Source: an uncultured archaeon
Lineage (GTDB): Archaea; Thermoplasmatota; Penumbrarchaeia; JASLWR01
DNA: 14,326 bases
Assembly (NCBI GenBank): GCA_964342815.1
Contig: CAYFHS010000051.1
Location: 1-14,326, forward strand
Direction of reading: 5' to 3'
Both the position numbers and the translations under genes were made by a program. The notes beneath the pieces are model-generated. The model searched no databases. It saw only the letters and a program-made list of their open reading frames with translations, and was not told the DNA's origin. This document shows positions 3,126 through 14,326 of the stretch, in pieces; positions within the stretch are counted from its first letter, which is position 1; every line of letters begins with the position of its first letter.

Positions 3126-6100
3126 TTACGGATCAATATCCGGACCTTCACCGGTTTTCAGATCGATATTTTCCGAGGTATCAGGCCGATCATTCTTAAC
3201 AATCCTTTTACGAACGACAACTCGTTTTCTATTTTCAACCTTTTTTCGCATGGATTCACTTTCCGATGGGCCCGTTCCGGGTATGCCGCTCCCGGCCCTA
3301 TTTCTCTTCCTGTGGCGTTTCAAAATCATCAAAACAACAATTATCAGTAACAGAACCGATAGTACTATTACTGCCTGGATAACACTTCCCAAAGCTGCTT
3401 TTTCACCGACACCCTCTCCCTGCCCACCTGCTCTACCATTATCATCATCGGCATCGATATCATCGTCTTCATCGATTATGGGATCATCATCTTCATCATC
3501 TATCGGTTCGGGATCGCCATCCCCCGGACCATCGGGTAGATTCACATCCACAGGAATGTCCGGTTTTTCCGATTCTTCCACATCGTCATCCCCATCCGGC
3601 TCTCCCGTATCATTATCGTCATCATCTTCTTGCCCAACTGTGCCCTCTTCCTCTACATATTTCAAACCCCAATGAGTATTAGTGGGATTCACTTTGATAC
3701 GATGGGAATCCGACTGGACCGTGTCATCCGGCGAATACATGGGAAATACCAGAGCCGGAGGTGAGACGAACCTTCCAGGAAGCATGGGTACCACTTCATA
3801 CTCCATCTCCAGCTCATCGAGAGTGCTTATAAAGAAGGTCACATGGTCGTCGGAGATCTCAAACGAGAGGACATTGCCGTTACTGTTTTCCACAACGGTC
3901 TCGAGAGACGTTTCATCTACTTTAAAGCCTGGACAAATATAGTCTTCCACCGCCACAAATCTCAGGGTTTCATCGGACCATGCCTTGATCTTGACCGTTA
4001 TGGGGGAAAACAGTTCCACACTGGTATCGGAATAGCTCCTCTGAATGAAATAATCACTGGAGCTGACGGTTAGAGCAGACCCTTCAGCATATGTCAATAC
4101 ATTGTCATCAGCCATGAGAACCGCTGTTCCAAGGTCCCCCCGATAATCCTCCGGGCAGCTCACCTCGTAACTAAACTCCTGGTAATCCTTCGAAGTGTCC
4201 ACGGCGAATTCGACGAAGTTTTCCCCCGTAAGTTCCACATTCCCCTGTGAGAGTGAAGCGGGTAGGTGATCCCGGATCCGCACACTCCCCATTCCATCTC
4301 TCTGTTCCTCCGTTCCCTCGATTGATACCTTCAGTTTAATATTCATATCATTATTTGTCCGCATAGCGAACGCGTCAGCGCTCTTTTCAAGTTTGACCGA
4401 TATACCCGGACCACCCGACAATCCTCTCGTGTCAGTACCCCTTGTTGGCATATTTTGGACCTTCACCGTGACAGGTCCGTAGTATTTCGTTATAAGCCCG
4501 CTCTCCCTCTGACCCGCACTCAATTTATAATTTACTATTATAGGTGATATCTTCGCGGTCCCGGCCCCCGCACCGAGGAAATTAAAGCTGAATTTCCTTG
4601 ATGAATCCGAATCCGCCGGATGGTCCGATTGGGAGTTTAAATAGATCAAATTTCGCCCGGAGCTCACACGAACGTCCAGGTCAATGACCTTAACGTTCTT
4701 TGAGTTCACGGGATCCGCCGTTACTTCGAAACTTAAGGTATCTCCCCGGTACATGGATAGATTGGTATCGAAGTTCACAACCACGTCCTTCCTCAGGTAT
4801 TCCACCGTGGTAAGCTCATAGAACAGCTCGCCGGTTCCATCCTTGCTTATGCTGATATTGTTGGGTCCATCAGTATTGAGATATTCAGTTATATCCATTG
4901 CATCCATCTTATTGTAGAAATTTCGGTAAGTACGATCATTCACGTGTTCCCTGGCAATGCGTTTGCCGTTCACCGTGACCGTTATATCCATATCGATGGG
5001 TTGGGCGTTCCTCAAAACCTCCAGTACAGCGAACATGTATGCAACCGTTGCGGTGGTGGTGCCAAAATCACCGGTTGAAAGGCGCCGGGAGTTCAACCAC
5101 TCCAGCAGTTCCCTGATGAGAGCCGGATCGTCGTTTGCTTTTGCTGCAAGGTAGAGTACCCATGCAGTACATTCCGTTTGCCCTCCCAGGGCGTTGTCGC
5201 TTTCGAAATGCGAACCTATCTTCATATCGGTAAGGTCGGCCATTATCGGAGCAATCTGCTGTCCGCCCAATTCAGTATCACCGAGACCGTAGTGTGAGAG
5301 GCCGTACGGGGTAAGGTTGCCCTCCTGCATTATACGCTGCAGGGATTGCTCTGTGGGTTGCGGGGCGGGGATTCCGGATCTCGCCAGGGAAAAATAGAGA
5401 AAAGCCGTAAGAGCCACGTCGTCCATATCATCACCGGGACCCGGCATCCATGTACCGTCCTCACCTATTCTCATCATCAAAAAATCCTGGCAGTCCGCTA
5501 TGGACTGCGGGTCTACAAAAAAACCTGAATCCTTGGTGGTGGACAGCCCCAACAGCACCCACCCGCTCATCCAGAGACTGGAATCATCTCCCTTCCACCA
5601 ACCCCAGCCGCCATCCAGGTGCTGTTTTGCCAGAAGAGATTGAAGTTCGGTGTATATCTTGCGGGTGAGATATCGGTCTGTCCACCGTTCCAGATCCCCC
5701 GTTTCCTTAAGATATTCGCGGTACAGAACTGCGGGGATCATCCGGGAGGTTATCTGCTCGGTACAGTCGTACGGATATCCCGCAAGCATGGAGAAACCCA
5801 TCTTTAAGAGTCCCTGGTATCCAGGTGCCAGGCGAAGAACCGTTTTCTGTGTACCGTTGATCAATTCCTCGTGGAAATCAAAAATCTCTGTTACGGTTGG
5901 ATCAACAGCTCCCGTGGCATGGCTCACGAGAAGAGCCCCGTTGGGCTTTACGAAAACCTCTTTTCGTACTGCATCGGTACTGCCCTTGAAATCGCTGGCA
6001 ATGAATGTTAAATTATTTTTCATGGCACCGAATATTTTCATGCGGTAGAGATGTTCAGCAATGGAATTAGCAGGTATCTTCACCTTGATCTGAACCTCAC

Positions 6101-9100
6101 CGAAAACCTTTATCCAATCGTCTGCGGATACACCGAGTTCCGCTTCTATTTCGGTATCATGAAAGTTATACAGGAGAACCTTCATTTCTATTTCGTCGTC
6201 CTGGGTCATTTTATAAGGCAGTTTCGGCTCGATAAAGAAGACTTTACTTACGTTGAAAGTGGCAGTGTTCTCACCTCCCACCAATCCCTGGGTAAGCCCG
6301 GTTCCTCTTATTCTCCACTTGCCGATATTATCGGGTAGGGTTAGATCGATAATTGCTCTTCCGTCCTGCCCAGTTGTAATCCAGGGGAGCCAAAGAGCCG
6401 TATCGGTGAACCATTCCCGAACGTCGGTGTTGTCAAGCTCGGACTGAAGCGCATCGCCTAGCTCAGCATCCTTAGGTGCTTCTTCCCCCTCATATCCTCC
6501 ACCCTGGCCCTGGCCTGCTCCATTCTCTGCCATTCCATCGCCATCGGCGTCTCCAAGAGGATCCGGTTCGATCCCGTTAAGCTTAATATTCGGCCAGTAC
6601 GAAACAGTCTCTGACGGGAGCGATTCCGGGTACCATGTATCGCTGTCCCAATTCAGTATCGTACGGTAGCTCCATTCAAAGGCCCAAGGAGTGACGAGGT
6701 TATCATAAAATGTTTTCGCGGAAAAGTCCTGGAAAATCTCGAAAACCGCTGCATCGACTACGGAAATAGAGACCTGGACACCAGCAGCAGGAAATCCATC
6801 GCTCTCCAGAACGGTTACGGTCAACTTTGTACTCTCCCCGGGTTCATAGGCCGGTTTATCCATCTCGAGAATTAATTCCAAAGGACGTATTCCATAATTA
6901 ATAACGGCACTGGAGGTGATCAGACGCGCCATATCGTCTACCAGGAATACGGTCAAATCAATGTCATGATGCCAGTCCTTCGTCGTGAACGTAAACTGGG
7001 CCGCCCGCCCGTTAACATACCTGTTTTTTGTTATAACGTCCCATCCGGCCGAAACAGACAAATAGACGAAACCTGTGAACTCCTCCGATAAATCAAGCTG
7101 AACGTCGATAATATCTCCAGGGAAATATTCCAATTTCGAGGGGATTAGAGTAATCTCGAGCGGGGATTTATCCACCACTTCAACGGGATGATCTATGACG
7201 GTTTCGTGTTGACTGTTCTCGAAGCTAACCCTGATAATATACCTCCCGCTCTCAAGATGCTCCGGCAGACGCCACGTGACATTGATCAGCCCAACAGCTT
7301 TTCCGGATACGGCGAACACGGGTGAAGCGTCGTAGAATGAATAGTAATAGTTATCATAATAACCATAATATCTCTCCCGCTTGAATACGCTCAGCGTATA
7401 GTTGTAATCAGCATCTATAGTGGGGACCAATGATTCCGCTCCCAGTGTGATTGTGGCATTCGATCCGGGTGCGAAGGCTGCCGGGGCGTTTCTTACGGTA
7501 TAGATAACAGTGTGAACGAAGAACTCGTACTCCATGGACACTGGAGGTGTATTGTCGGAAGCCGTAGATACAGCAATCTTGAAGTAGTACCGTCCCTGGG
7601 CCGACAGGTTGAAAACGTCCACCCCCGCAGCCGCCAGATCGATTTGAGCAATTCCGTTCCGGTCAGTGGTCACATTGAATAACGTTTCCGCTCTTTCAGG
7701 CAGCCATCCTTCATTTTTCCCTATCATCCCGAATGACGTGACATTGATCATTAGGGTTGTGCTAATGTTAGCGATCCTTTGGACATCGATCTCATCCGTA
7801 CCTTTTTCAATTTCCCGGTAATTATATGTATTTAGGGTGAATTTTGGTTCATCCGTGGCCACAAAGGGTTCTTTCGACGGTACAATATCGATACCGGTCT
7901 TGAGGTCCGGGTCGGGAGCTTCTCCCACGTAATATGTCGTTGCGGCTTCGCATGAGTGATCATAATCATCAGAAAATACCGCCTCCAACTCGATCCGGTT
8001 AACTCCTTTGGGAATATCTAACGTGGTATTGGCCCAACCGTTCTCTACGGTTTCGTTTATCTCCAGTGTGATCAGAGGGGCCGGGTCGTTCCACCATCCA
8101 CCCCAATAATCGCCGTCACCTCCGCTATAAATTCCGTCCATATCTATTTCACCCCACCAGTACCAGGGATTGTATTCATACCGGTTCTCGTATCCCTGTA
8201 TCAGATAACTCACCTCACCCTGGTACACCGGCGCCCCGAACATGTATTCAACTTTAACCGGTATCTCCACCACGCCGGTCCTCAGTGAGATGTCTTCGTC
8301 GAAAACTATCCTCGTATCCGGGGTCTCGTAGTATCTAACACCCACATCTCTGCCCACTACATAGCTGCCGTCATGGTATACCGCAATTCGGTATGTGCCC
8401 CAGGGGGCGTCCTTTGATATGGGAAACTCGGTTTCGGCCGTACCAAATTCATCCAATACCAGATTCTCCCTTATAATATCCTTACCGTTACCATCATAGG
8501 AAAGTCGAACATCGATCGGCCCACCCAGCGGGATGGCATTATCCATATCATAGAGTGTGAATTGCGCTAAAATGGTATCCCCAGGCAGATAAACGGGTTT
8601 ATTCGTGTGAATATACCCCGAAAATTGCTCGGATCGGATCCACGCATAGGTTTCCACTTTTCCGGTCAGCGCCCCTTTGGATGCCGTTATCTCCAAACGA
8701 TAGTAATTGCCTGCAGGGGGCAAAAAGCTCAATGAAGCAAGTCCGTCCACCCCGGTTTTACCTGTAGTCATACGCCTCCGGGGAACGGAACGTCCCGACA
8801 TGTGTATTTCGATATTGGCATTTTCCACGGGAACTATCCCCGAGCCGTAAACCAGGACCGAGACATTTGCAGAATGACCTTTAACCAGTGTCGAGGGAGT
8901 ATTGATATAGAGTAAAAAATCCTTGACCTGAAAAGTTGTATGGCCGATCCAGTTATATGGGAAATTCTTAGCCCCAAGGGCCTCAACGATGGTTCTCGTT
9001 TTCGGTGAGAAAATCGCCACGGCTCTGAAATCGTGTTTGCCTTTTGCCAATTGTCCAAGGTCCACGGTCTTGTCGTAATCAGCAAACAATTCAGTACTTG

Positions 9101-10688
9101 AGTATCCGCCGTCCAGGTAAACCGCGAACTCCCAACTTGCCATTGAACCGGCTCCTTTGGTACCTGTTACGGAAACATTCGAACCGGTGTCGGTGAAATA
9201 GACATTCCCTGATTTGAAGGCATTCAGGTAAACGTCGCTCCCACAGTTGAAATAGTGAAGTCGGTTGTAATTAGAAGAAAGTTTGTATCCGTTCCATGTG
9301 TAGATCGGGAAGGTTCCTTGCGGGTGATGGGGCTGTTGTGGGTGGAAATTTGCAGCGGCGATATACCTGCCAGGAAGCTCGAATTCGTAATTAGTTGAGG
9401 CAAGTCCTTTGAGGGTCAACGACCGGTCGAACATTGTATAGGCCGTTGCTCCGCTTCCGGGGACGTACACGTAATAGAAAAGTGAAAGCCACACGTCGGT
9501 ATCGTATGGATCGGCATGCTCGGGATGTGCTACAGCGATCCCTCTCAGGCCGCCGTTGGCATACCAAAGAGAAAAATCAGATTCGTTCATTGTAGTGGTG
9601 ATGGAATATTTATGGAGTTCGATGGATACGTTATCGTAAACGTCAGGTTCAGGATTATCCAGCTGGACCCAGCTGACAGTCGGATTCATCACGTAGGTAT
9701 ATGCACGGGAGTATGGGAATTTCACGGAATACGAGAAATCCCAGGGTATAGGTACGTCATATGCGGTAACTGCAAGATTGTATCGGCCGATCTGTTCGAG
9801 GGTTATATTGTAATACAAGCCTTCGAGAGGTATATTTACCGACGTCTTATTCAGAAGGGAACTTTTGAAAAGATGAAGGTATGCGGTCCCATTCGCAGGA
9901 GTATACAGGGAATCCAGCACGGGTGATGGAGTATGGTAACCTGTGAAGCGGGAGAGAAATTCATATGTATTGTCAGAAGGCGAATAAGCAAAACGTTGAA
10001 TGTAATAATGGGCTCTGTGACCGGGCAGAAGCGTAGGATAGATGCTCTTGACCGTTGTAAATAATTCAGGATATGCGGAACCTTTTACGTAACCAATCTT
10101 CATCTCACGGGAAAGTCGGGCTATCTCGTTTGTCCTTGCATGGACGCCGAGAGTGACCTTGGAAGCATTCACACCGAGTATGAAGTAATATTTGGCGGGC
10201 TCATCAGCTATGTGTGTATAGGTATAGGTTCCGTTAATAATCGTGATTTCCTTTTTCAGTGATCGATCCAGAGTATAATAAGATCGGGTGGCATAAACGA
10301 ATAACGTTGCATCAAGGGTTTCGGGTATTACATTTGTACCATCCGGCAGGACCCGGGAGACGGTAAAGGAAACATTGAACTCCTCAAGGGCTTTTATCAC
10401 GGGAATTTCCAGTTTTCCCTGAATATCCCATGTTTCCCATATTTCTTCAGTATTCAACATGCCGCCTTTGGGAGTGGGATCGTCAGCATCGGGAATCCCG
10501 TCCGCATCTGTGTCGGGATTGTTTGGGTCGGTCCCAATAGCTTCCTCATAACGGTCGGAAAGCCCGTCAAAATCCGAATCCGGCTCCTCGGCTTCTGCAT
10601 TTGAGCCGGTTAATCCCAAAGCGGAAAGCAGCATCAGCGCAACCACTGAAATCGATATAATTCTTAGGTATGTCTCTCTAGATACCAT
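3126..10688 (-). CDS. Alpha-2-macroglobulin family thioester protein, secreted and C-terminally membrane-anchored
   Basis: Signal peptide (IISISVVALMLLSALGLTGSNAEA|), DxDxDG repeats, MG2 YIHTNKPVYLPGD, DKPAYEPGE...VVDAAV, bait region, VREWFTDTALW...LPDNIGKWRI, FFIEPKLPY, thioester YPYDCTEQ (5754-5777), TED QHLDGGWGWW, C-terminal MG domain with PMY, acidic linker, TM helix at 3321-3398. Start set at ATG10688 (SD-like AGGGGCGA); the ORF track starts at 10721. Confidence 0.95.
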   Translation of the reverse strand: MVSRETYLRIISISVVALMLLSALGLTGSNAEAEEPDSDFDGLSDRYEEAIGTDPNNPDTDADGIPDADDPTPKGGMLNTEEIWETWDIQGKLEIPVIKALEEFNVSFTVSRVLPDGTNVIPETLDATLFVYATRSYYTLDRSLKKEITIINGTYTYTHIADEPAKYYFILGVNASKVTLGVHARTNEIARLSREMKIGYVKGSAYPELFTTVKSIYPTLLPGHRAHYYIQRFAYSPSDNTYEFLSRFTGYHTPSPVLDSLYTPANGTAYLHLFKSSLLNKTSVNIPLEGLYYNITLEQIGRYNLAVTAYDVPIPWDFSYSVKFPYSRAYTYVMNPTVSWVQLDNPEPDVYDNVSIELHKYSITTTMNESDFSLWYANGGLRGIAVAHPEHADPYDTDVWLSLFYYVYVPGSGATAYTMFDRSLTLKGLASTNYEFELPGRYIAAANFHPQQPHHPQGTFPIYTWNGYKLSSNYNRLHYFNCGSDVYLNAFKSGNVYFTDTGSNVSVTGTKGAGSMASWEFAVYLDGGYSSTELFADYDKTVDLGQLAKGKHDFRAVAIFSPKTRTIVEALGAKNFPYNWIGHTTFQVKDFLLYINTPSTLVKGHSANVSVLVYGSGIVPVENANIEIHMSGRSVPRRRMTTGKTGVDGLASLSFLPPAGNYYRLEITASKGALTGKVETYAWIRSEQFSGYIHTNKPVYLPGDTILAQFTLYDMDNAIPLGGPIDVRLSYDGNGKDIIRENLVLDEFGTAETEFPISKDAPWGTYRIAVYHDGSYVVGRDVGVRYYETPDTRIVFDEDISLRTGVVEIPVKVEYMFGAPVYQGEVSYLIQGYENRYEYNPWYWWGEIDMDGIYSGGDGDYWGGWWNDPAPLITLEINETVENGWANTTLDIPKGVNRIELEAVFSDDYDHSCEAATTYYVGEAPDPDLKTGIDIVPSKEPFVATDEPKFTLNTYNYREIEKGTDEIDVQRIANISTTLMINVTSFGMIGKNEGWLPERAETLFNVTTDRNGIAQIDLAAAGVDVFNLSAQGRYYFKIAVSTASDNTPPVSMEYEFFVHTVIYTVRNAPAAFAPGSNATITLGAESLVPTIDADYNYTLSVFKRERYYGYYDNYYYSFYDASPVFAVSGKAVGLINVTWRLPEHLESGRYIIRVSFENSQHETVIDHPVEVVDKSPLEITLIPSKLEYFPGDIIDVQLDLSEEFTGFVYLSVSAGWDVITKNRYVNGRAAQFTFTTKDWHHDIDLTVFLVDDMARLITSSAVINYGIRPLELILEMDKPAYEPGESTKLTVTVLESDGFPAAGVQVSISVVDAAVFEIFQDFSAKTFYDNLVTPWAFEWSYRTILNWDSDTWYPESLPSETVSYWPNIKLNGIEPDPLGDADGDGMAENGAGQGQGGGYEGEEAPKDAELGDALQSELDNTDVREWFTDTALWLPWITTGQDGRAIIDLTLPDNIGKWRIRGTGLTQGLVGGENTATFNVSKVFFIEPKLPYKMTQDDEIEMKVLLYNFHDTEIEAELGVSADDWIKVFGEVQIKVKIPANSIAEHLYRMKIFGAMKNNLTFIASDFKGSTDAVRKEVFVKPNGALLVSHATGAVDPTVTEIFDFHEELINGTQKTVLRLAPGYQGLLKMGFSMLAGYPYDCTEQITSRMIPAVLYREYLKETGDLERWTDRYLTRKIYTELQSLLAKQHLDGGWGWWKGDDSSLWMSGWVLLGLSTTKDSGFFVDPQSIADCQDFLMMRIGEDGTWMPGPGDDMDDVALTAFLYFSLARSGIPAPQPTEQSLQRIMQEGNLTPYGLSHYGLGDTELGGQQIAPIMADLTDMKIGSHFESDNALGGQTECTAWVLYLAAKANDDPALIRELLEWLNSRRLSTGDFGTTTATVAYMFAVLEVLRNAQPIDMDITVTVNGKRIAREHVNDRTYRNFYNKMDAMDITEYLNTDGPNNISISKDGTGELFYELTTVEYLRKDVVVNFDTNLSMYRGDTLSFEVTADPVNSKNVKVIDLDVRVSSGRNLIYLNSQSDHPADSDSSRKFSFNFLGAGAGTAKISPIIVNYKLSAGQRESGLITKYYGPVTVKVQNMPTRGTDTRGLSGGPGISVKLEKSADAFAMRTNNDMNIKLKVSIEGTEEQRDGMGSVRIRDHLPASLSQGNVELTGENFVEFAVDTSKDYQEFSYEVSCPEDYRGDLGTAVLMADDNVLTYAEGSALTVSSSDYFIQRSYSDTSVELFSPITVKIKAWSDETLRFVAVEDYICPGFKVDETSLETVVENSNGNVLSFEISDDHVTFFISTLDELEMEYEVVPMLPGRFVSPPALVFPMYSPDDTVQSDSHRIKVNPTNTHWGLKYVEEEGTVGQEDDDDNDTGEPDGDDDVEESEKPDIPVDVNLPDGPGDGDPEPIDDEDDDPIIDEDDDIDADDDNGRAGGQGEGVGEKAALGSVIQAVIVLSVLLLIIVVLMILKRHRKRNRAGSGIPGTGPSESESMRKKVENRKRVVVRKRIVKNDRPDTSENIDLKTGEGPDIDP
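10460..10590 (-). repeat. Thrombospondin type-3-like Ca2+-binding repeats at the mature N-terminus of the A2M
   Basis: DSDFDGLSDRYEEAIGTDPNNPDTDADGIPDADD contains two DxDxDG units linked by the typical GTDPxxPD segment. Confidence 0.8.
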
Positions 10689-10745
10689 TATATTCGCCCC
10701 TGATATGTGTGATTTAATCAATACAACAACGTTAAACTGCCGTGG

Positions 10746-10753
10746 TATATAAA
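10746..10753 (-). promoter_or_regulatory. Archaeal TATA box of the A2M gene
   Basis: TTTATATA on the minus strand, 58 nt upstream of ATG10688; matches the TTTAWATA consensus. Confidence 0.7.
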
Positions 10754-10764
10754 TATAGATTATG

Positions 10765-10848: not shown

Positions 10849-11433
10849 TCAAATAATACCGGTATAACCCAGTTTCGCCAAAGCCTCCCAAACTTTCGAT
10901 AGAGGAAGTCCCATTACGTTGAAATAACACCCTTCGATCCTTTCTACCAGCAGACCGCCTTTGCCCTGAATGGCGTAGGCCCCCGCTTTGTTTTTATACT
11001 CTCCCGAATCCAGATAGAAATTTATCTCCGCGTCCGAATAGGGACGCATGAAGACATTGGTGACCGCGGTATCATTTTGAACTAAACCCTTGTAATGAAC
11101 TGAAAAACCTGTAATTACCTTATGGCATCTTCCACTAAGAGCCGAAAGAATCCCGAAAGCGTCCAGGCGGTCAACTGGTTTTTTTAATGTAGTTCCGTCC
11201 AGATCCCCAAGAGTGTCGGCCGCCAGGAGCGGGCGATCCCCAATCTCGTCAGCGTGGTTTTCCAACACGTGGGCCGCTTTCAAGCGAGCAAGATGCAGAA
11301 CCATTTCTTCGGGTGACGACATTTCGGTATTATTCTCATCGATACCCGGAACCAGTATCTTTACGTCAAAACCGGCATTCTTCAGAACCTCGTATCTCGC
11401 CGGGGAGCCGGAGGCGAGCACTATTTTCCCCAT
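10849..11433 (-). CDS. maf: Maf-family nucleoside triphosphate pyrophosphatase (YhdE-like, dTTP/UTP)
   Basis: IVLASGSPAR, LAADT (catalytic Asp followed by Thr), TLKKP, LSGRCHKVITG, YKNKAGAYAIQG, GCYFNVMGLP; SD GAGGTGA at 11438-11444. Confidence 0.95.
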   Translation of the reverse strand: MGKIVLASGSPARYEVLKNAGFDVKILVPGIDENNTEMSSPEEMVLHLARLKAAHVLENHADEIGDRPLLAADTLGDLDGTTLKKPVDRLDAFGILSALSGRCHKVITGFSVHYKGLVQNDTAVTNVFMRPYSDAEINFYLDSGEYKNKAGAYAIQGKGGLLVERIEGCYFNVMGLPLSKVWEALAKLGYTGII

Positions 11434-11456: not shown

Positions 11457-12641
11457 CTATTGCCCGGGATCCCCCTCCATGGTTTCCACAGGGTCAAGCG
11501 ATATCTCTTCGATGCTGAACTCCCCATCATGATCGAGAACCGCAATGGCCCCTGCATTGCCCTGCCCGCGATAGTCCGGGGCGGAGAAAATCCGTAATAG
11601 TCTACCATCAAAGTAATATTCAAATCCCTTGGATACTGCCTTGTGCGCCACGACCATCCTTTTCAATCCGTTATTTTTAATAAAAATATCAAAGACCTTT
11701 CTGCCGAACAGCCGGGCCCTGTCACCCCGGGGGGACGGCTCGAATCCCACATTCTCGTCCACAGGATCGTTCCACAGTATCTCGAAGAGAATATCGTCCT
11801 CGCTGAGCTCGGTGTTGGCTTCCAGCGAATTTATCTCGCGTATGTCCTCGAGCAGGCGGGGTATCCCGCCGTGCAGTGCGAGAGTCTCGCCGCCATGGAG
11901 AACGGCCAGGGGCAGCAGGGCGAATATCTCGTTGTACCAGTTGAATACCTTTTCATGATGCTGCTCCAGAAATTTCTCCTTTATCTCATCCAAAAATCCA
12001 TAATGAAAGTTTATTGGAAGCGTCTCGTTATTACCCCTGAGGAGAATGATCCTTTCGGGATCGGCCAATTTCTCCAGAAAAAGGCGGTTGACGACCTTTA
12101 GCGAGTCTTTCCCCGCATCGACGTAATCCCCGAGGAATACCAGATGTCGTATATCGGAACCATAGCTTCGATAGCGGTCCAGTATCCACACCAAAGCATC
12201 GTAATCCCCGTGAATATCCCCTGCGAAGATTGTGGCGCTCCCGCCAACTTCCACCAGGTTGCCTTCTCTCTCCAGAATGTCGGATACACCAATTAGAAGC
12301 TGCATGGTGAGAAAGGAATCGAACTTGTCGATAAAAGTTGGATTGGAAATGAAATCGTTGATGACAGCGGGTGTGAAGAAGGGTTTTCCCGGTACGAAGG
12401 TTTCCTCCACCTCGATATGTTCCCGGGCTTTCAGGGCTTCGGCCCGGGCTTTCGGGTCTTCTTCGGTCATGTAATTTATTGGATAGCTTTTTTCCGTGTC
12501 CTCGGGTAGTAATAAAGGAGGTTTCTTCTTTTTCATAACGTTATCTTCATCTGCCGGATCGGCCTTTTCCTCGGTGTTTTTTTCTTTTTCCGACGTCATT
12601 TCCATCGCTCTCGGGGATCTTGGTATATGGGAGATATTCAA
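11457..12641 (-). CDS. PPP-family (PP1/PP2A-like) Ser/Thr phosphatase homologue with substituted catalytic residues
   Basis: GDIHG, FLGDYVDAG, LRGNNE, LHGGI, ILWNDP, SPRG, AH and FSAPDY occur in canonical order and spacing. Start is uncertain (TTG12641, ATG12605 or ATG12599). Confidence 0.9.
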   Translation of the reverse strand: MNISHIPRSPRAMEMTSEKEKNTEEKADPADEDNVMKKKKPPLLLPEDTEKSYPINYMTEEDPKARAEALKAREHIEVEETFVPGKPFFTPAVINDFISNPTFIDKFDSFLTMQLLIGVSDILEREGNLVEVGGSATIFAGDIHGDYDALVWILDRYRSYGSDIRHLVFLGDYVDAGKDSLKVVNRLFLEKLADPERIILLRGNNETLPINFHYGFLDEIKEKFLEQHHEKVFNWYNEIFALLPLAVLHGGETLALHGGIPRLLEDIREINSLEANTELSEDDILFEILWNDPVDENVGFEPSPRGDRARLFGRKVFDIFIKNNGLKRMVVAHKAVSKGFEYYFDGRLLRIFSAPDYRGQGNAGAIAVLDHDGEFSIEEISLDPVETMEGDPGQ

Positions 12642-12825: not shown

Positions 12826-12897
12826 GGAGAGGTGACAGAGCGGCTATGTGCGCGACTGCAGATCGTGTCTATGGGAGTTCGAATCTCCCCCTCTCCA
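12826..12897 (+). tRNA. tRNA-Cys (anticodon GCA), intron-less, CCA not encoded
   Basis: Acceptor GGAGAGG/CCTCTCC; D-arm ACAG-AGCGGCT-ATGT; anticodon stem CGCGA/TCGTG with loop CT-GCA-GA (anticodon 12858-12860); T-arm GGGAG-TTCGAAT-CTCCC; followed by a T-rich tract. Confidence 0.95.
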
Positions 12898-13012
12898 CTC
12901 TTTATTTGGGGTTATATATAGAACTCAGATTTTACCATAAAAGCTCTGATTTATTCCTGAAACCATCAAAATATCGGTGAATACCTGGGAATATGATCTA
13001 TATTTTCTTAAA

Positions 13013-13130
13013 AAGACCCTTGATCCTTGCTCTTTCCAAGGATTTCTAGCACCCCTCAGACCCGTATTAAGCACTCTCAAGGATATTCAGCACCCTCAAG
13101 ACCCTTGCACCTCAAGCACCTAGAACCCTT
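13013..13130. repeat. Degenerate 16-21-bp tandem repeat array with a 7-7-7 inverted repeat
   Basis: Units gatccttgctctttccaag / gatttctagcacccctcaga / cccgtattaagcactctcaag / gatattcagcaccctcaag / acccttgcacctcaag share a GCAC-n-CTCAAG core. AAGACCCTTG occurs twice (13013, 13098). ATCCTTG-7nt-CAAGGAT spans 13023-13043. Confidence 0.6.
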
Positions 13131-13189
13131 CTTGGACTTCTCAAACCCCTATACTCTTTCGTTTGTTCAAGTATTGCACACACATGAGT

Positions 13190-14326
13190 TTAGGATTTTG
13201 TCCCTTGCATCTCTAAAAAATTTATCAATTCTGACTTTTTATTATTATAGGATTCAACTTGGAATTTCCAATGCTTCATCATTATCAGGTAAAAATCTTT
13301 TTCTTCTCGTATTAAGGAACCTTGTATCATAAATGCGTCTAATACTTTATTAGCCTCACCTATGGAATTTGTATATTCATCTACAAGATTATGAAAATCT
13401 TTTAAAAGAGGATCAAATATTTTCTGAACATTTCCCACCTTTTTTTCATCGCTTACATATTTAGAAATTTCATTCTTTATTAAATCCATTTGATCAATGA
13501 CTAATTTTGCTTTATTAGTAATACTGATGTCAATTTCTTTTAAGTGACTAATTGTAGTATTACCAATATAATCATGTAAAAACCTATTTTTTATCTCTTC
13601 ATTATTCAAGTAACCTAGCATTATTTCCAATTCTAAATTACTCAACCAATCCTCTCTATTAGCTTCCGATACTTTTAATAAAACCAACTCAAATATAATA
13701 AATATTATAAATATTTTTAATGAAAAAACAACTAAATTATTATGCTTAATTATGTTTGAAATTATTCCAACGTTATAAACGGCGGAAATTAGAATAATAA
13801 TATATAATAGTAGAAGAAAAAATAAAACAAATTTCTGGAAAAAGAAAGCCTTTTTTGACGTAAACTGAAATGCAGGAATTTCATATTTTTGAAGGTTTTC
13901 TTTTTTAAATACCTTTTTCAATTTGATTCGGAATCTAATGTAAAGAATTGATTGCAACAAGATAAATATTCCTATAAGCAAATAAGGGATAGGGGAATAT
14001 CCAAATTTTCTAATATAAAAAGCAGTAAAAAAATTAAGGATTGACATTAATACAAAATTTATATGGACCAAAATTTCAACAACTTTTTGTTCTTTTTCAC
14101 CAAGTTTACTTTTCAACCTTCTTGTAAACGGAAAGATTAAAATTATCATTAGAAGTGCAAATATCAATAATAATAATAAGAATACATTTAGGATGTTCGT
14201 TATTATTGTTATTGTTAATTTATAGTTCAAATATATTTGTTCGATTTTATTCGGATTTTTTATCATGTCTATAAATAGATAAAAAATTATTGCGATCAAT
14301 CCATATATTGTTATTCCCGAAATCTG
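13190..14326 (-). CDS. AT-rich polytopic membrane protein with a helical C-terminal domain (5'-truncated by the window edge)
   Basis: The frame has no stop through position 14326 (QISGITIYG precedes the TTG at 14299). About six hydrophobic segments are followed by ~120 aa of charged helical sequence. No family recognised. Confidence 0.75.
   Translation of the reverse strand, partial: QISGITIYGLIAIIFYLFIDMIKNPNKIEQIYLNYKLTITIITNILNVFLLLLLIFALLMIILIFPFTRRLKSKLGEKEQKVVEILVHINFVLMSILNFFTAFYIRKFGYSPIPYLLIGIFILLQSILYIRFRIKLKKVFKKENLQKYEIPAFQFTSKKAFFFQKFVLFFLLLLYIIILISAVYNVGIISNIIKHNNLVVFSLKIFIIFIIFELVLLKVSEANREDWLSNLELEIMLGYLNNEEIKNRFLHDYIGNTTISHLKEIDISITNKAKLVIDQMDLIKNEISKYVSDEKKVGNVQKIFDPLLKDFHNLVDEYTNSIGEANKVLDAFMIQGSLIREEKDFYLIMMKHWKFQVESYNNKKSELINFLEMQGTKS

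Follow-up and report, generated by a model that had tools for sequence, protein, structure and literature searches.

A long-form, C-terminally anchored alpha-2-macroglobulin from a Thermoplasmatota archaeon, a probable cell-surface protease trap

Gene, domain layout and predicted fold

The DNA analysed here is a 14,326-nt stretch (the window) of contig CAYFHS010000051.1 from an uncultured Thermoplasmatota archaeon, whose source genome comprises 4.35 Mb in 116 contigs and is 89% complete. A single minus-strand open reading frame (ORF), spanning 3126..10721 if it starts at a TTG and 3126..10688 if it starts at the first ATG, encodes a very large member of the alpha-2-macroglobulin (A2M)/thioester-protein family. 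We took 10688 as the start because the ATG there coincides with the N-termini of orthologs (MISRE.., MLSRD..) and is preceded, 8 nt upstream, by a GGGG run resembling a Shine-Dalgarno sequence. The resulting protein has 2,520 amino acids (aa). Full-length orthologs with 48-84% identity were found in the same family of genomes, and close relatives carry the labels Thermoplasmatota or Thermoplasmata archaeon. NCBI already names relatives, including a partial ortholog, "alpha-2-macroglobulin family protein".

Five Pfam domains were detected, all exceeding their cut-offs: MG2 (residues 691-772, E = 2e-16), A2M_BRD (1180-1317, E = 1.9e-8), A2M or MG7 (1430-1518, E = 7.5e-18), TED (1632-1748, E = 5e-14) and bMG10 (2230-2321, E = 1.9e-10). 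They are preceded by a signal peptide with a basic n-region and a hydrophobic core at residues 8-28; since the first Cys of the protein is residue 482, there is no lipobox. A preliminary description of this DNA had proposed a protein of about 2520 aa from an archaeal A2M/thioester family, with a Sec signal peptide lacking a lipobox Cys, a full A2M domain series and an intact CxEQ motif. All of these proposals were borne out, the family identity by the Pfam series, the structural matches described below and the archaeal labels of the relatives. The features and their coordinates are collected in Table 1.

Table 1. Features of the A2M gene and its product, with coordinates in the window.
Feature	Residues	Window position	Strand	Basis
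Whole coding sequence, long-form archaeal A2M, 2,520 aa plus stop	1-2520	3126..10688	-	ORF call, Pfam, orthologs
Putative TATA-box-like element, TATATTTATATA, ~64 nt upstream of ATG		10746..10757	-	weak, by eye
Shine-Dalgarno-like run, GGGG, 8 nt upstream of ATG		10697-10700	-	weak, by eye
Sec-type signal peptide, AEA/EE cleavage site, no lipobox Cys	1-33	10590..10688	-	sequence
Thrombospondin-type-3-like, Asp-rich, calcium-binding-type module	34-80	10449..10589	-	profile match, orthologs
N-terminal extension, ~six MG-like beta-sandwich domains, no Pfam match	81-690	8619..10448	-	model
MG2 (691-772) and presumed further MG domains (773-1179)	691-1179	7152..8618	-	Pfam for MG2
Bait-region domain, A2M_BRD	1180-1336	6681..7151	-	Pfam, model
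Candidate bait, disordered Gly/Asp/Glu-rich loop	1337-1403	6480..6680	-	model, ortholog indels
A2M (MG7) domain	1430-1518	6135..6401	-	Pfam
Thioester domain, alpha/alpha toroid	1623-1892	5013..5822	-	Pfam, model
Thioester motif C-T-E-Q within GYPYDCTEQ	1642-1645	5754..5765	-	alignment
Two long-form-specific beta-sandwich domains between CUB and last MG domain	~1975-2214	4047..4766	-	model, alignment occupancy
bMG10 (terminal MG/RBD-like); carries M2317-Y2318 (3735-3740)	2230-2334	3687..4001	-	Pfam, alignment
Disordered acidic stalk, ~44% D+E	2345-2430	3399..3656	-	composition, model
Single C-terminal transmembrane helix, Kyte-Doolittle 3.26	2431-2456	3321..3398	-	hydropathy
Cytoplasmic tail, 64 aa, opens with the basic KRHRKRNR, contains no domain, varies among orthologs	2457-2520	3129..3320	-	sequence

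The core of the protein (residues 1175-2345) was modelled with AlphaFold2 (AF2) from an alignment of 44 sequences, giving a pLDDT of 84.4 and a pTM of 0.73. In a Foldseek comparison with the PDB, this model matched native A2ML1 and native CD109 best (E = 1.5e-38, TMq 0.48), followed by native frog A2M, C5, TEP1, ECAM and Salmonella A2M, all at E <= 1e-29. The TM-scores were 0.47-0.48 against native forms and 0.32-0.34 against activated forms; because the native forms outscore the activated ones, the core model resembles the native state, in which the thioester is buried. According to alignment occupancy, the two beta-sandwich domains at residues ~1975-2214 are largely limited to the clade of long relatives (~2,400-2,800 aa) to which this protein belongs, hereafter the long form.

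A separate AF2 model of residues 75-700 (pLDDT 79.7), a region with no Pfam match, consists largely of beta-sandwiches and matches the MG1-MG6 arrays of C3/C4/C5, A2ML1 and ECAM at ~1e-17. The model suggests that the extension comprises about six additional MG domains. Ahead of it lies the module resembling thrombospondin type 3 (TSP3), which matches region 261-309 of a CglD model and in which many positions are invariant among orthologs.

Dozens of other large ORFs in the same genome and in relatives of the class also carry the TSP3-like motif, DSDFDGLSD.YE..GTDPNNPDTD.DG, at their N-termini (40-65% identity). In related genomes it follows the signal peptides of many other ORFs, and copies in the source genome lie at C11:85386-85499, C23:56208-56336 and C7:133802-133918. 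From its sequence distribution, the module may be a calcium-binding or docking unit shared by the secreted proteins of this lineage.

The predicted thioester pocket and the candidate bait

The residues surrounding the predicted thioester are strongly conserved. The stretch GYPYDCTEQ aligns to AYPYGCLEQ of Sa-A2M, and the YPY before the Cys is common to both. CTEQ is invariant among 8 aligned orthologs; in 44 diverse homologues, E1644 and Y2318 of bMG10 are invariant and C1642 and Q1645 nearly so. In C3 and in bacterial A2Ms, residues of MG8 and MG10 shield the thioester. The pair M2317-Y2318 of bMG10 was compared among relatives with and without the motif, using a small sample of bMG10 regions extracted by local BLAST. 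Three long-form relatives lack the CxEQ Cys (P0062, P0072 and P0075). Met-Tyr was altered in two of them, P0062 and P0072, while the bMG10 region of P0075 gave no match. In contrast, 12 of 13 thioester-bearing sequences retained it; the bacterial P0117 has Tyr-Tyr instead. Loss of Met-Tyr along with the Cys is as expected if Met-Tyr shields a working thioester. This covariation suggests that selection maintains a working thioester pocket in the window A2M, and the conserved YPY and M2317-Y2318 give indirect support for a putative reactive thioester bond.

These comparisons bear on the suggestion that the protein is a glycoprotein of the envelope, structural or associated with the S-layer, that has kept the A2M fold and makes no use of a reactive thioester. 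The loss of CxEQ in the three relatives indicates that the A2M scaffold can persist without a thioester, and the window protein is large, glycosylated and anchored in the manner of envelope proteins. However, the Cys, the Gln, the YPY and the bMG10 Met-Tyr are strictly conserved in it and in all close orthologs, and the altered Met-Tyr of two Cys-less relatives argues for a pocket that is under selection here. We consider a purely structural role improbable.

The C3/C4/TEP1-type catalytic His lies ~110 residues after the thioester Cys; C3 and C4B also have it. The stretch of TEP1 that contains this residue, vwHkdmqGG, aligns to tWMPG-PGDD in the window protein, which has no His there. Without a catalytic His, the thioester is predicted to undergo direct aminolysis by lysines, which is the chemistry of the family's inhibitor branch. 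The segment between the bait-region domain and MG7 likewise suits an inhibitor. The 67 residues 1337-1403 have a pLDDT below 50 between confident domains of the core model, in which the only other low-confidence stretch is a 13-residue loop at 2081-2093, and they vary with indels between orthologs. As modelled, this segment has the position and character expected of the family's bait.

An alternative is that the protein is a covalent adhesin or opsonin resembling C3 or TEP1, whose activated thioester tags a foreign surface, for instance that of a virus, of another cell, of a particle or of prey, and ties the target to the archaeon through the anchor. The nearest solved sequence is indeed the opsonin TEP1, a C-terminal anchor would keep captured targets on the cell, and the about six extra MG domains, the two extra beta domains and the TSP3-like module resemble adhesin architecture. 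The same genome also has many giant adhesin-like surface proteins. Against this stand the lack of the catalytic His that lets C3, C4B and TEP1 attack hydroxyl groups, and the lack of an ANA or C345C domain in the Pfam search. A bait-region domain followed by a long unstructured bait is, moreover, the inhibitor layout, and the top structural matches, A2ML1, CD109 and A2M, are inhibitors. Taken together, we regard the adhesin or opsonin as an unlikely explanation, though the most serious of the competing ones.

Membrane anchor, glycosylation sequons and cytoplasmic tail

The window A2M contains just two strongly hydrophobic segments, one N-terminal and one C-terminal, and is predicted to have type-I membrane topology. 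Its ectodomain carries 26 N-x-S/T sequons, compared with 15.6 +/- 3.6 in shuffled sequences, of which a fraction of 0.0035 reached 26; 21 of the 26 are retained in at least four of five close orthologs. The abundance of sequons, the C-terminal transmembrane helix and the basic tail of about 60 aa had all been given in the preliminary description and agree with what was found; K+R make up ~25% of the last 60 residues.

The same description had further suggested that the tail might relay a signal after cleavage. In its full form, this would make the protein a protease-sensing receptor, in which bait cleavage or the conformational change is transmitted through the transmembrane helix to the basic tail to signal inside the cell. 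Signalling A2Ms are plausible in principle, since distant bacterial A2Ms exist that are fused to an anti-sigma zf-HC2 domain and encoded beside a gene for an extracytoplasmic function (ECF) sigma factor. In addition, the tails of the closest orthologs share a short stretch resembling V-V-(R/K)-K-R-V-V-K. However, ortholog tails range from ~4 aa in P0008, from a genome of the same family, to ~80 aa in P0007 and have little sequence in common; P0008 ends with KYKSKKRR directly after the transmembrane segment. The tail of the window A2M has no Pfam domain at E <= 0.1 and no significant match elsewhere in its own genome (best E 0.014), and no conserved regulator gene lies beside the A2M gene. As tail length and sequence vary and neither a domain nor a genomic match was detected, the signalling tail is unsupported, and we judge a receptor function very improbable.

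The anchor is better explained by the habits of the organism. Among ORFs of at least 300 aa in its genome, 158 have an N-terminal hydrophobic segment and one C-terminal transmembrane segment with none between, whereas 72 have the N-terminal segment only. The former count indicates that a C-terminal helix is the organism's default means of surface attachment, and the tails of these 158 ORFs have a median length of 34 aa (range 0-130). The anchor and tail of the window A2M thus appear, from sequence comparison, to be the generic surface-protein format of the lineage and not a signalling device.

Processing by an archaeosortase of the PGF-CTERM-like type was considered and rejected, given a tail of 64 aa instead of a very short basic one and no match to the archaeosortase family PF09721 in the genome, although at 89% completeness this does not prove that the enzyme is absent.

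Predicted function, relatives and gene neighbourhood

With moderate confidence, we propose that this type-I membrane protein of the A2M/thioester-protein family is a tethered covalent protease trap on the surface of a marine Thermoplasmatota archaeon. The protein would be exported by Sec, cut after Ala33, N-glycosylated, and held by the C-terminal helix on an acidic stalk of ~85 residues. Cleavage of the bait (~1337-1403) by a foreign or self protease would trigger the conformational change typical of the family. The Cys1642-Gln1645 thioester would then be exposed and react directly with lysines of the protease, as in A2M, A2ML1, CD109 and ECAM, and the protease would remain covalently fixed at the cell surface. 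A cell-surface covalent protease trap had been put forward in the preliminary description; it stands as the function that best fits the domain series, the intact CTEQ, the bait loop and the anchor, whereas the signalling tail attached to it does not.

Several observations weigh against this proposal. In the literature searched, we found no biochemical characterisation of any archaeal A2M. The nearest solved protein by sequence score is an opsonin, TEP1 (1.6e-20), and not an inhibitor, and the ~800 extra beta-sandwich residues and the calcium-binding-type N-terminal module also occur in adhesins. The candidate bait is acidic with few K/R. Finally, the neighbours of the gene are housekeeping genes that offer no functional hint, and adjacency to Maf alone is conserved.

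The nearest working analogues are ECAM and Sa-A2M, as prokaryotic tethered monomeric traps, and CD109, as a C-terminally anchored thioester inhibitor. E. coli ECAM/YfhM (PDB 5a42, 4ziq and 4rtd) and Salmonella Sa-A2M (4u48), both bacterial type I A2Ms, share with the window A2M a prokaryotic host, a membrane tether and the series of MG array, BRD, bait, MG7, CUB, TED and terminal bMG10, as well as the YPY-C-x-EQ context, and the folds match at E ~1e-32. Unlike YfhM, which PDB entries call a lipoprotein, the window A2M is anchored by a C-terminal transmembrane helix instead of an N-terminal lipid, and no PBP1c gene lies near it. It is also ~870 residues longer, owing to the six extra N-terminal MG domains and the two extra beta domains after CUB, its sequence similarity to the bacterial proteins is weak (E = 3e-5), and its archaeal host has no outer membrane. 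CD109 (PDB 8s3o) and the monomeric A2ML1 (7q1y), the best structural matches, are thioester-dependent protease inhibitors (PMC12927315, PMC7960916, PMC9156758). CD109, too, is attached to the cell surface at its C-terminal end, but through a glycosylphosphatidylinositol (GPI) anchor instead of a transmembrane helix with a cytoplasmic tail; both proteins are animal, have ~1,450 aa and are 13-17% identical to the window A2M. The parallels that had been drawn with lipidated YfhM and GPI-linked CD109 are therefore apt, given the lipoprotein name in the PDB and the place of CD109 among the best structural matches. Insect TEP1 and complement C3/C4/C5 have the MG, CUB and TED folds in common with the window A2M, which differs in lacking the catalytic His, ANA and C345C and in having an unstructured bait in place of the convertase site.

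Archaeal A2Ms as such are not new. Makarova et al. (2021; PMC8416519) described archaeal A2M homologues, 27 of them, from 24 genomes, with CxEQ intact; this set is mainly from Halobacteria and Methanomicrobia, has signal peptides and lineage-specific architectures, and is a sequence-based prediction. The window A2M resembles them in its archaeal host, its signal peptide and a TED with intact CxEQ. It differs in that the PTS-like and Ig-protein neighbourhoods given for them are absent around it. Two accessions in the published set carry prefixes that we take to be those of Asgard genome submissions. A clade of ~2,500-aa Thermoplasmatota proteins with a C-terminal transmembrane helix was not found in PMC8416519, whose neighbourhood listing was available in part, and no paper on the long Thermoplasmatota form was found in the literature searched. 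The novelty claimed in the preliminary description accordingly holds for biochemistry, as no characterised archaeal A2M was found in that literature, and has to be narrowed for the proteins themselves, since archaeal CxEQ A2Ms were published in 2021 (PMC8416519).

The long form constitutes a distinct and fairly widespread clade. An exhaustive profile-free search returned 11,107 relatives. The long form accounted for ~14 clusters at 50% identity, nearly all with a C-terminal transmembrane helix; a further group with a C-terminal anchor, of ~1,950-2,080 aa, belongs to Asgard archaea, including Hodarchaeales and a Lokiarchaeial metagenome-assembled genome. Across the phylum, 20 of the 151 genomes sampled had an A2M/TED match at E <= 1e-15, and in ~10 of these 20, from six families, the match was at the level of the long form (E <= 1e-60; frames of more than 2,400 aa where complete). 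A contig scan for A2M gave, among the matches listed, distant and mostly bacterial loci at 21-30% identity.

A tree of the MG7-TED region was built in a quick IQ-TREE run. Branch support was limited to SH-aLRT, the composition of many rows was odd, the branch of the eukaryotes was long and the taxonomy was incomplete. The tree was used solely for the monophyly of the long-form clade, and no origin, donor or direction of transfer is concluded from it. The long-form clade was monophyletic (SH-aLRT 99), as was the Asgard clade (100). A well-supported split separates both clades from 25 named bacterial A2Ms; their side of it also holds at least one bacterium (P0117) and the long eukaryotic branch. 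A bolder reading is that the anchored A2Ms of the Thermoplasmatota long form and of Asgard archaea form a native archaeal system of covalent surface capture, complement- or TEP-like, that tethers whatever cleaves it. The radiation containing them would be mainly archaeal and closer to the thioester proteins of eukaryotes than to the sampled bacterial A2Ms, and eukaryotic thioester immunity would have archaeal roots and not the reverse. We think it doubtful and would give it little weight.

On the long-form/Asgard side of the split, eukaryotic CPAMD8 groups with prokaryotic A2Ms that bear a eukaryote-type A2M_recep domain (P0094, P0117, P0131 and P0147). Given the long eukaryotic branch and the incomplete taxonomy, this grouping is only a lead.

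In animals, A2Ms and complement-type thioester proteins play a central part in innate immunity. To our knowledge, studies of bacterial A2Ms have dealt only with lipid-anchored guards of the periplasm that are paired with PBP1c. Relatives already bear the family annotation, archaeal members have been published, and the anchor is the generic one of this lineage. The novelty lies in the long-form Thermoplasmatota clade, whose members have about six additional MG domains at the N-terminal end, two additional beta domains towards the C-terminus and an N-terminal module of the calcium-binding type, and lack a PBP1c partner. The clade represents a defined archaeal design, of type-I topology, in which the MG array is much longer and a partner gene is lacking; the organism studied here has a single membrane and lives by extracellular protein degradation. 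If the thioester works, all three domains of life would be shown to trap proteases covalently at the cell surface, and CD109 would gain a monomeric membrane-tethered counterpart for comparison. The practical value is limited, as public annotation already assigns the family automatically and other surface proteins of the lineage have the same kind of anchor.

The gene neighbourhood was compared with two orthologous loci, L092 and L094. The neighbours in the window encode Lrp/AsnC, thymidylate kinase, Maf, a metallophosphoesterase and tRNA-Cys (12826-12898). The Maf gene (10849-11433, minus strand) shares its strand with A2M and sits immediately upstream of it, an arrangement kept in both loci; the metallophosphoesterase gene (11457-12641, minus strand) is kept in L094 only, and the genes downstream of A2M differ. 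The adjacency of Maf and the phosphoesterase is probably inherited synteny without a functional link. Neither a PBP1c gene nor, beside A2M, a conserved regulator or protease partner gene was present in the window, L092 or L094.

The distant bacterial P0117 (L096:10001-14782; 1,593 aa) combines an intact CxEQ and a eukaryote-type A2M_recep domain with an N-terminal anti-sigma zf-HC2 domain (residues 3-37) followed by a transmembrane helix (83-110). Its gene is directly downstream of an ECF sigma-70 gene (L096:9431-9955), and its sequence makes it a candidate protease-sensing anti-sigma factor. Transmembrane-like segments also lie within the bait region, between A2M_BRD and A2M/MG7, of P0117 (one, ~798-850), P0094 (five, ~738-932) and P0131 (six, ~808-1027).

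Elsewhere in the window, positions 13001-14326 have a GC content of ~29%, compared with ~47% for the remainder. This low-GC stretch contains, just past tRNA-Cys, an open-ended ORF of 378 aa (13190..14326, minus strand) with no Pfam match, and, lying beside a tRNA gene, it may be foreign or integrated DNA. Three further ORFs of 171-207 aa have no Pfam match: 3-518 on the plus strand, and 654-1277 and 1213-1788 on the minus strand, the latter two overlapping by 65 nt.

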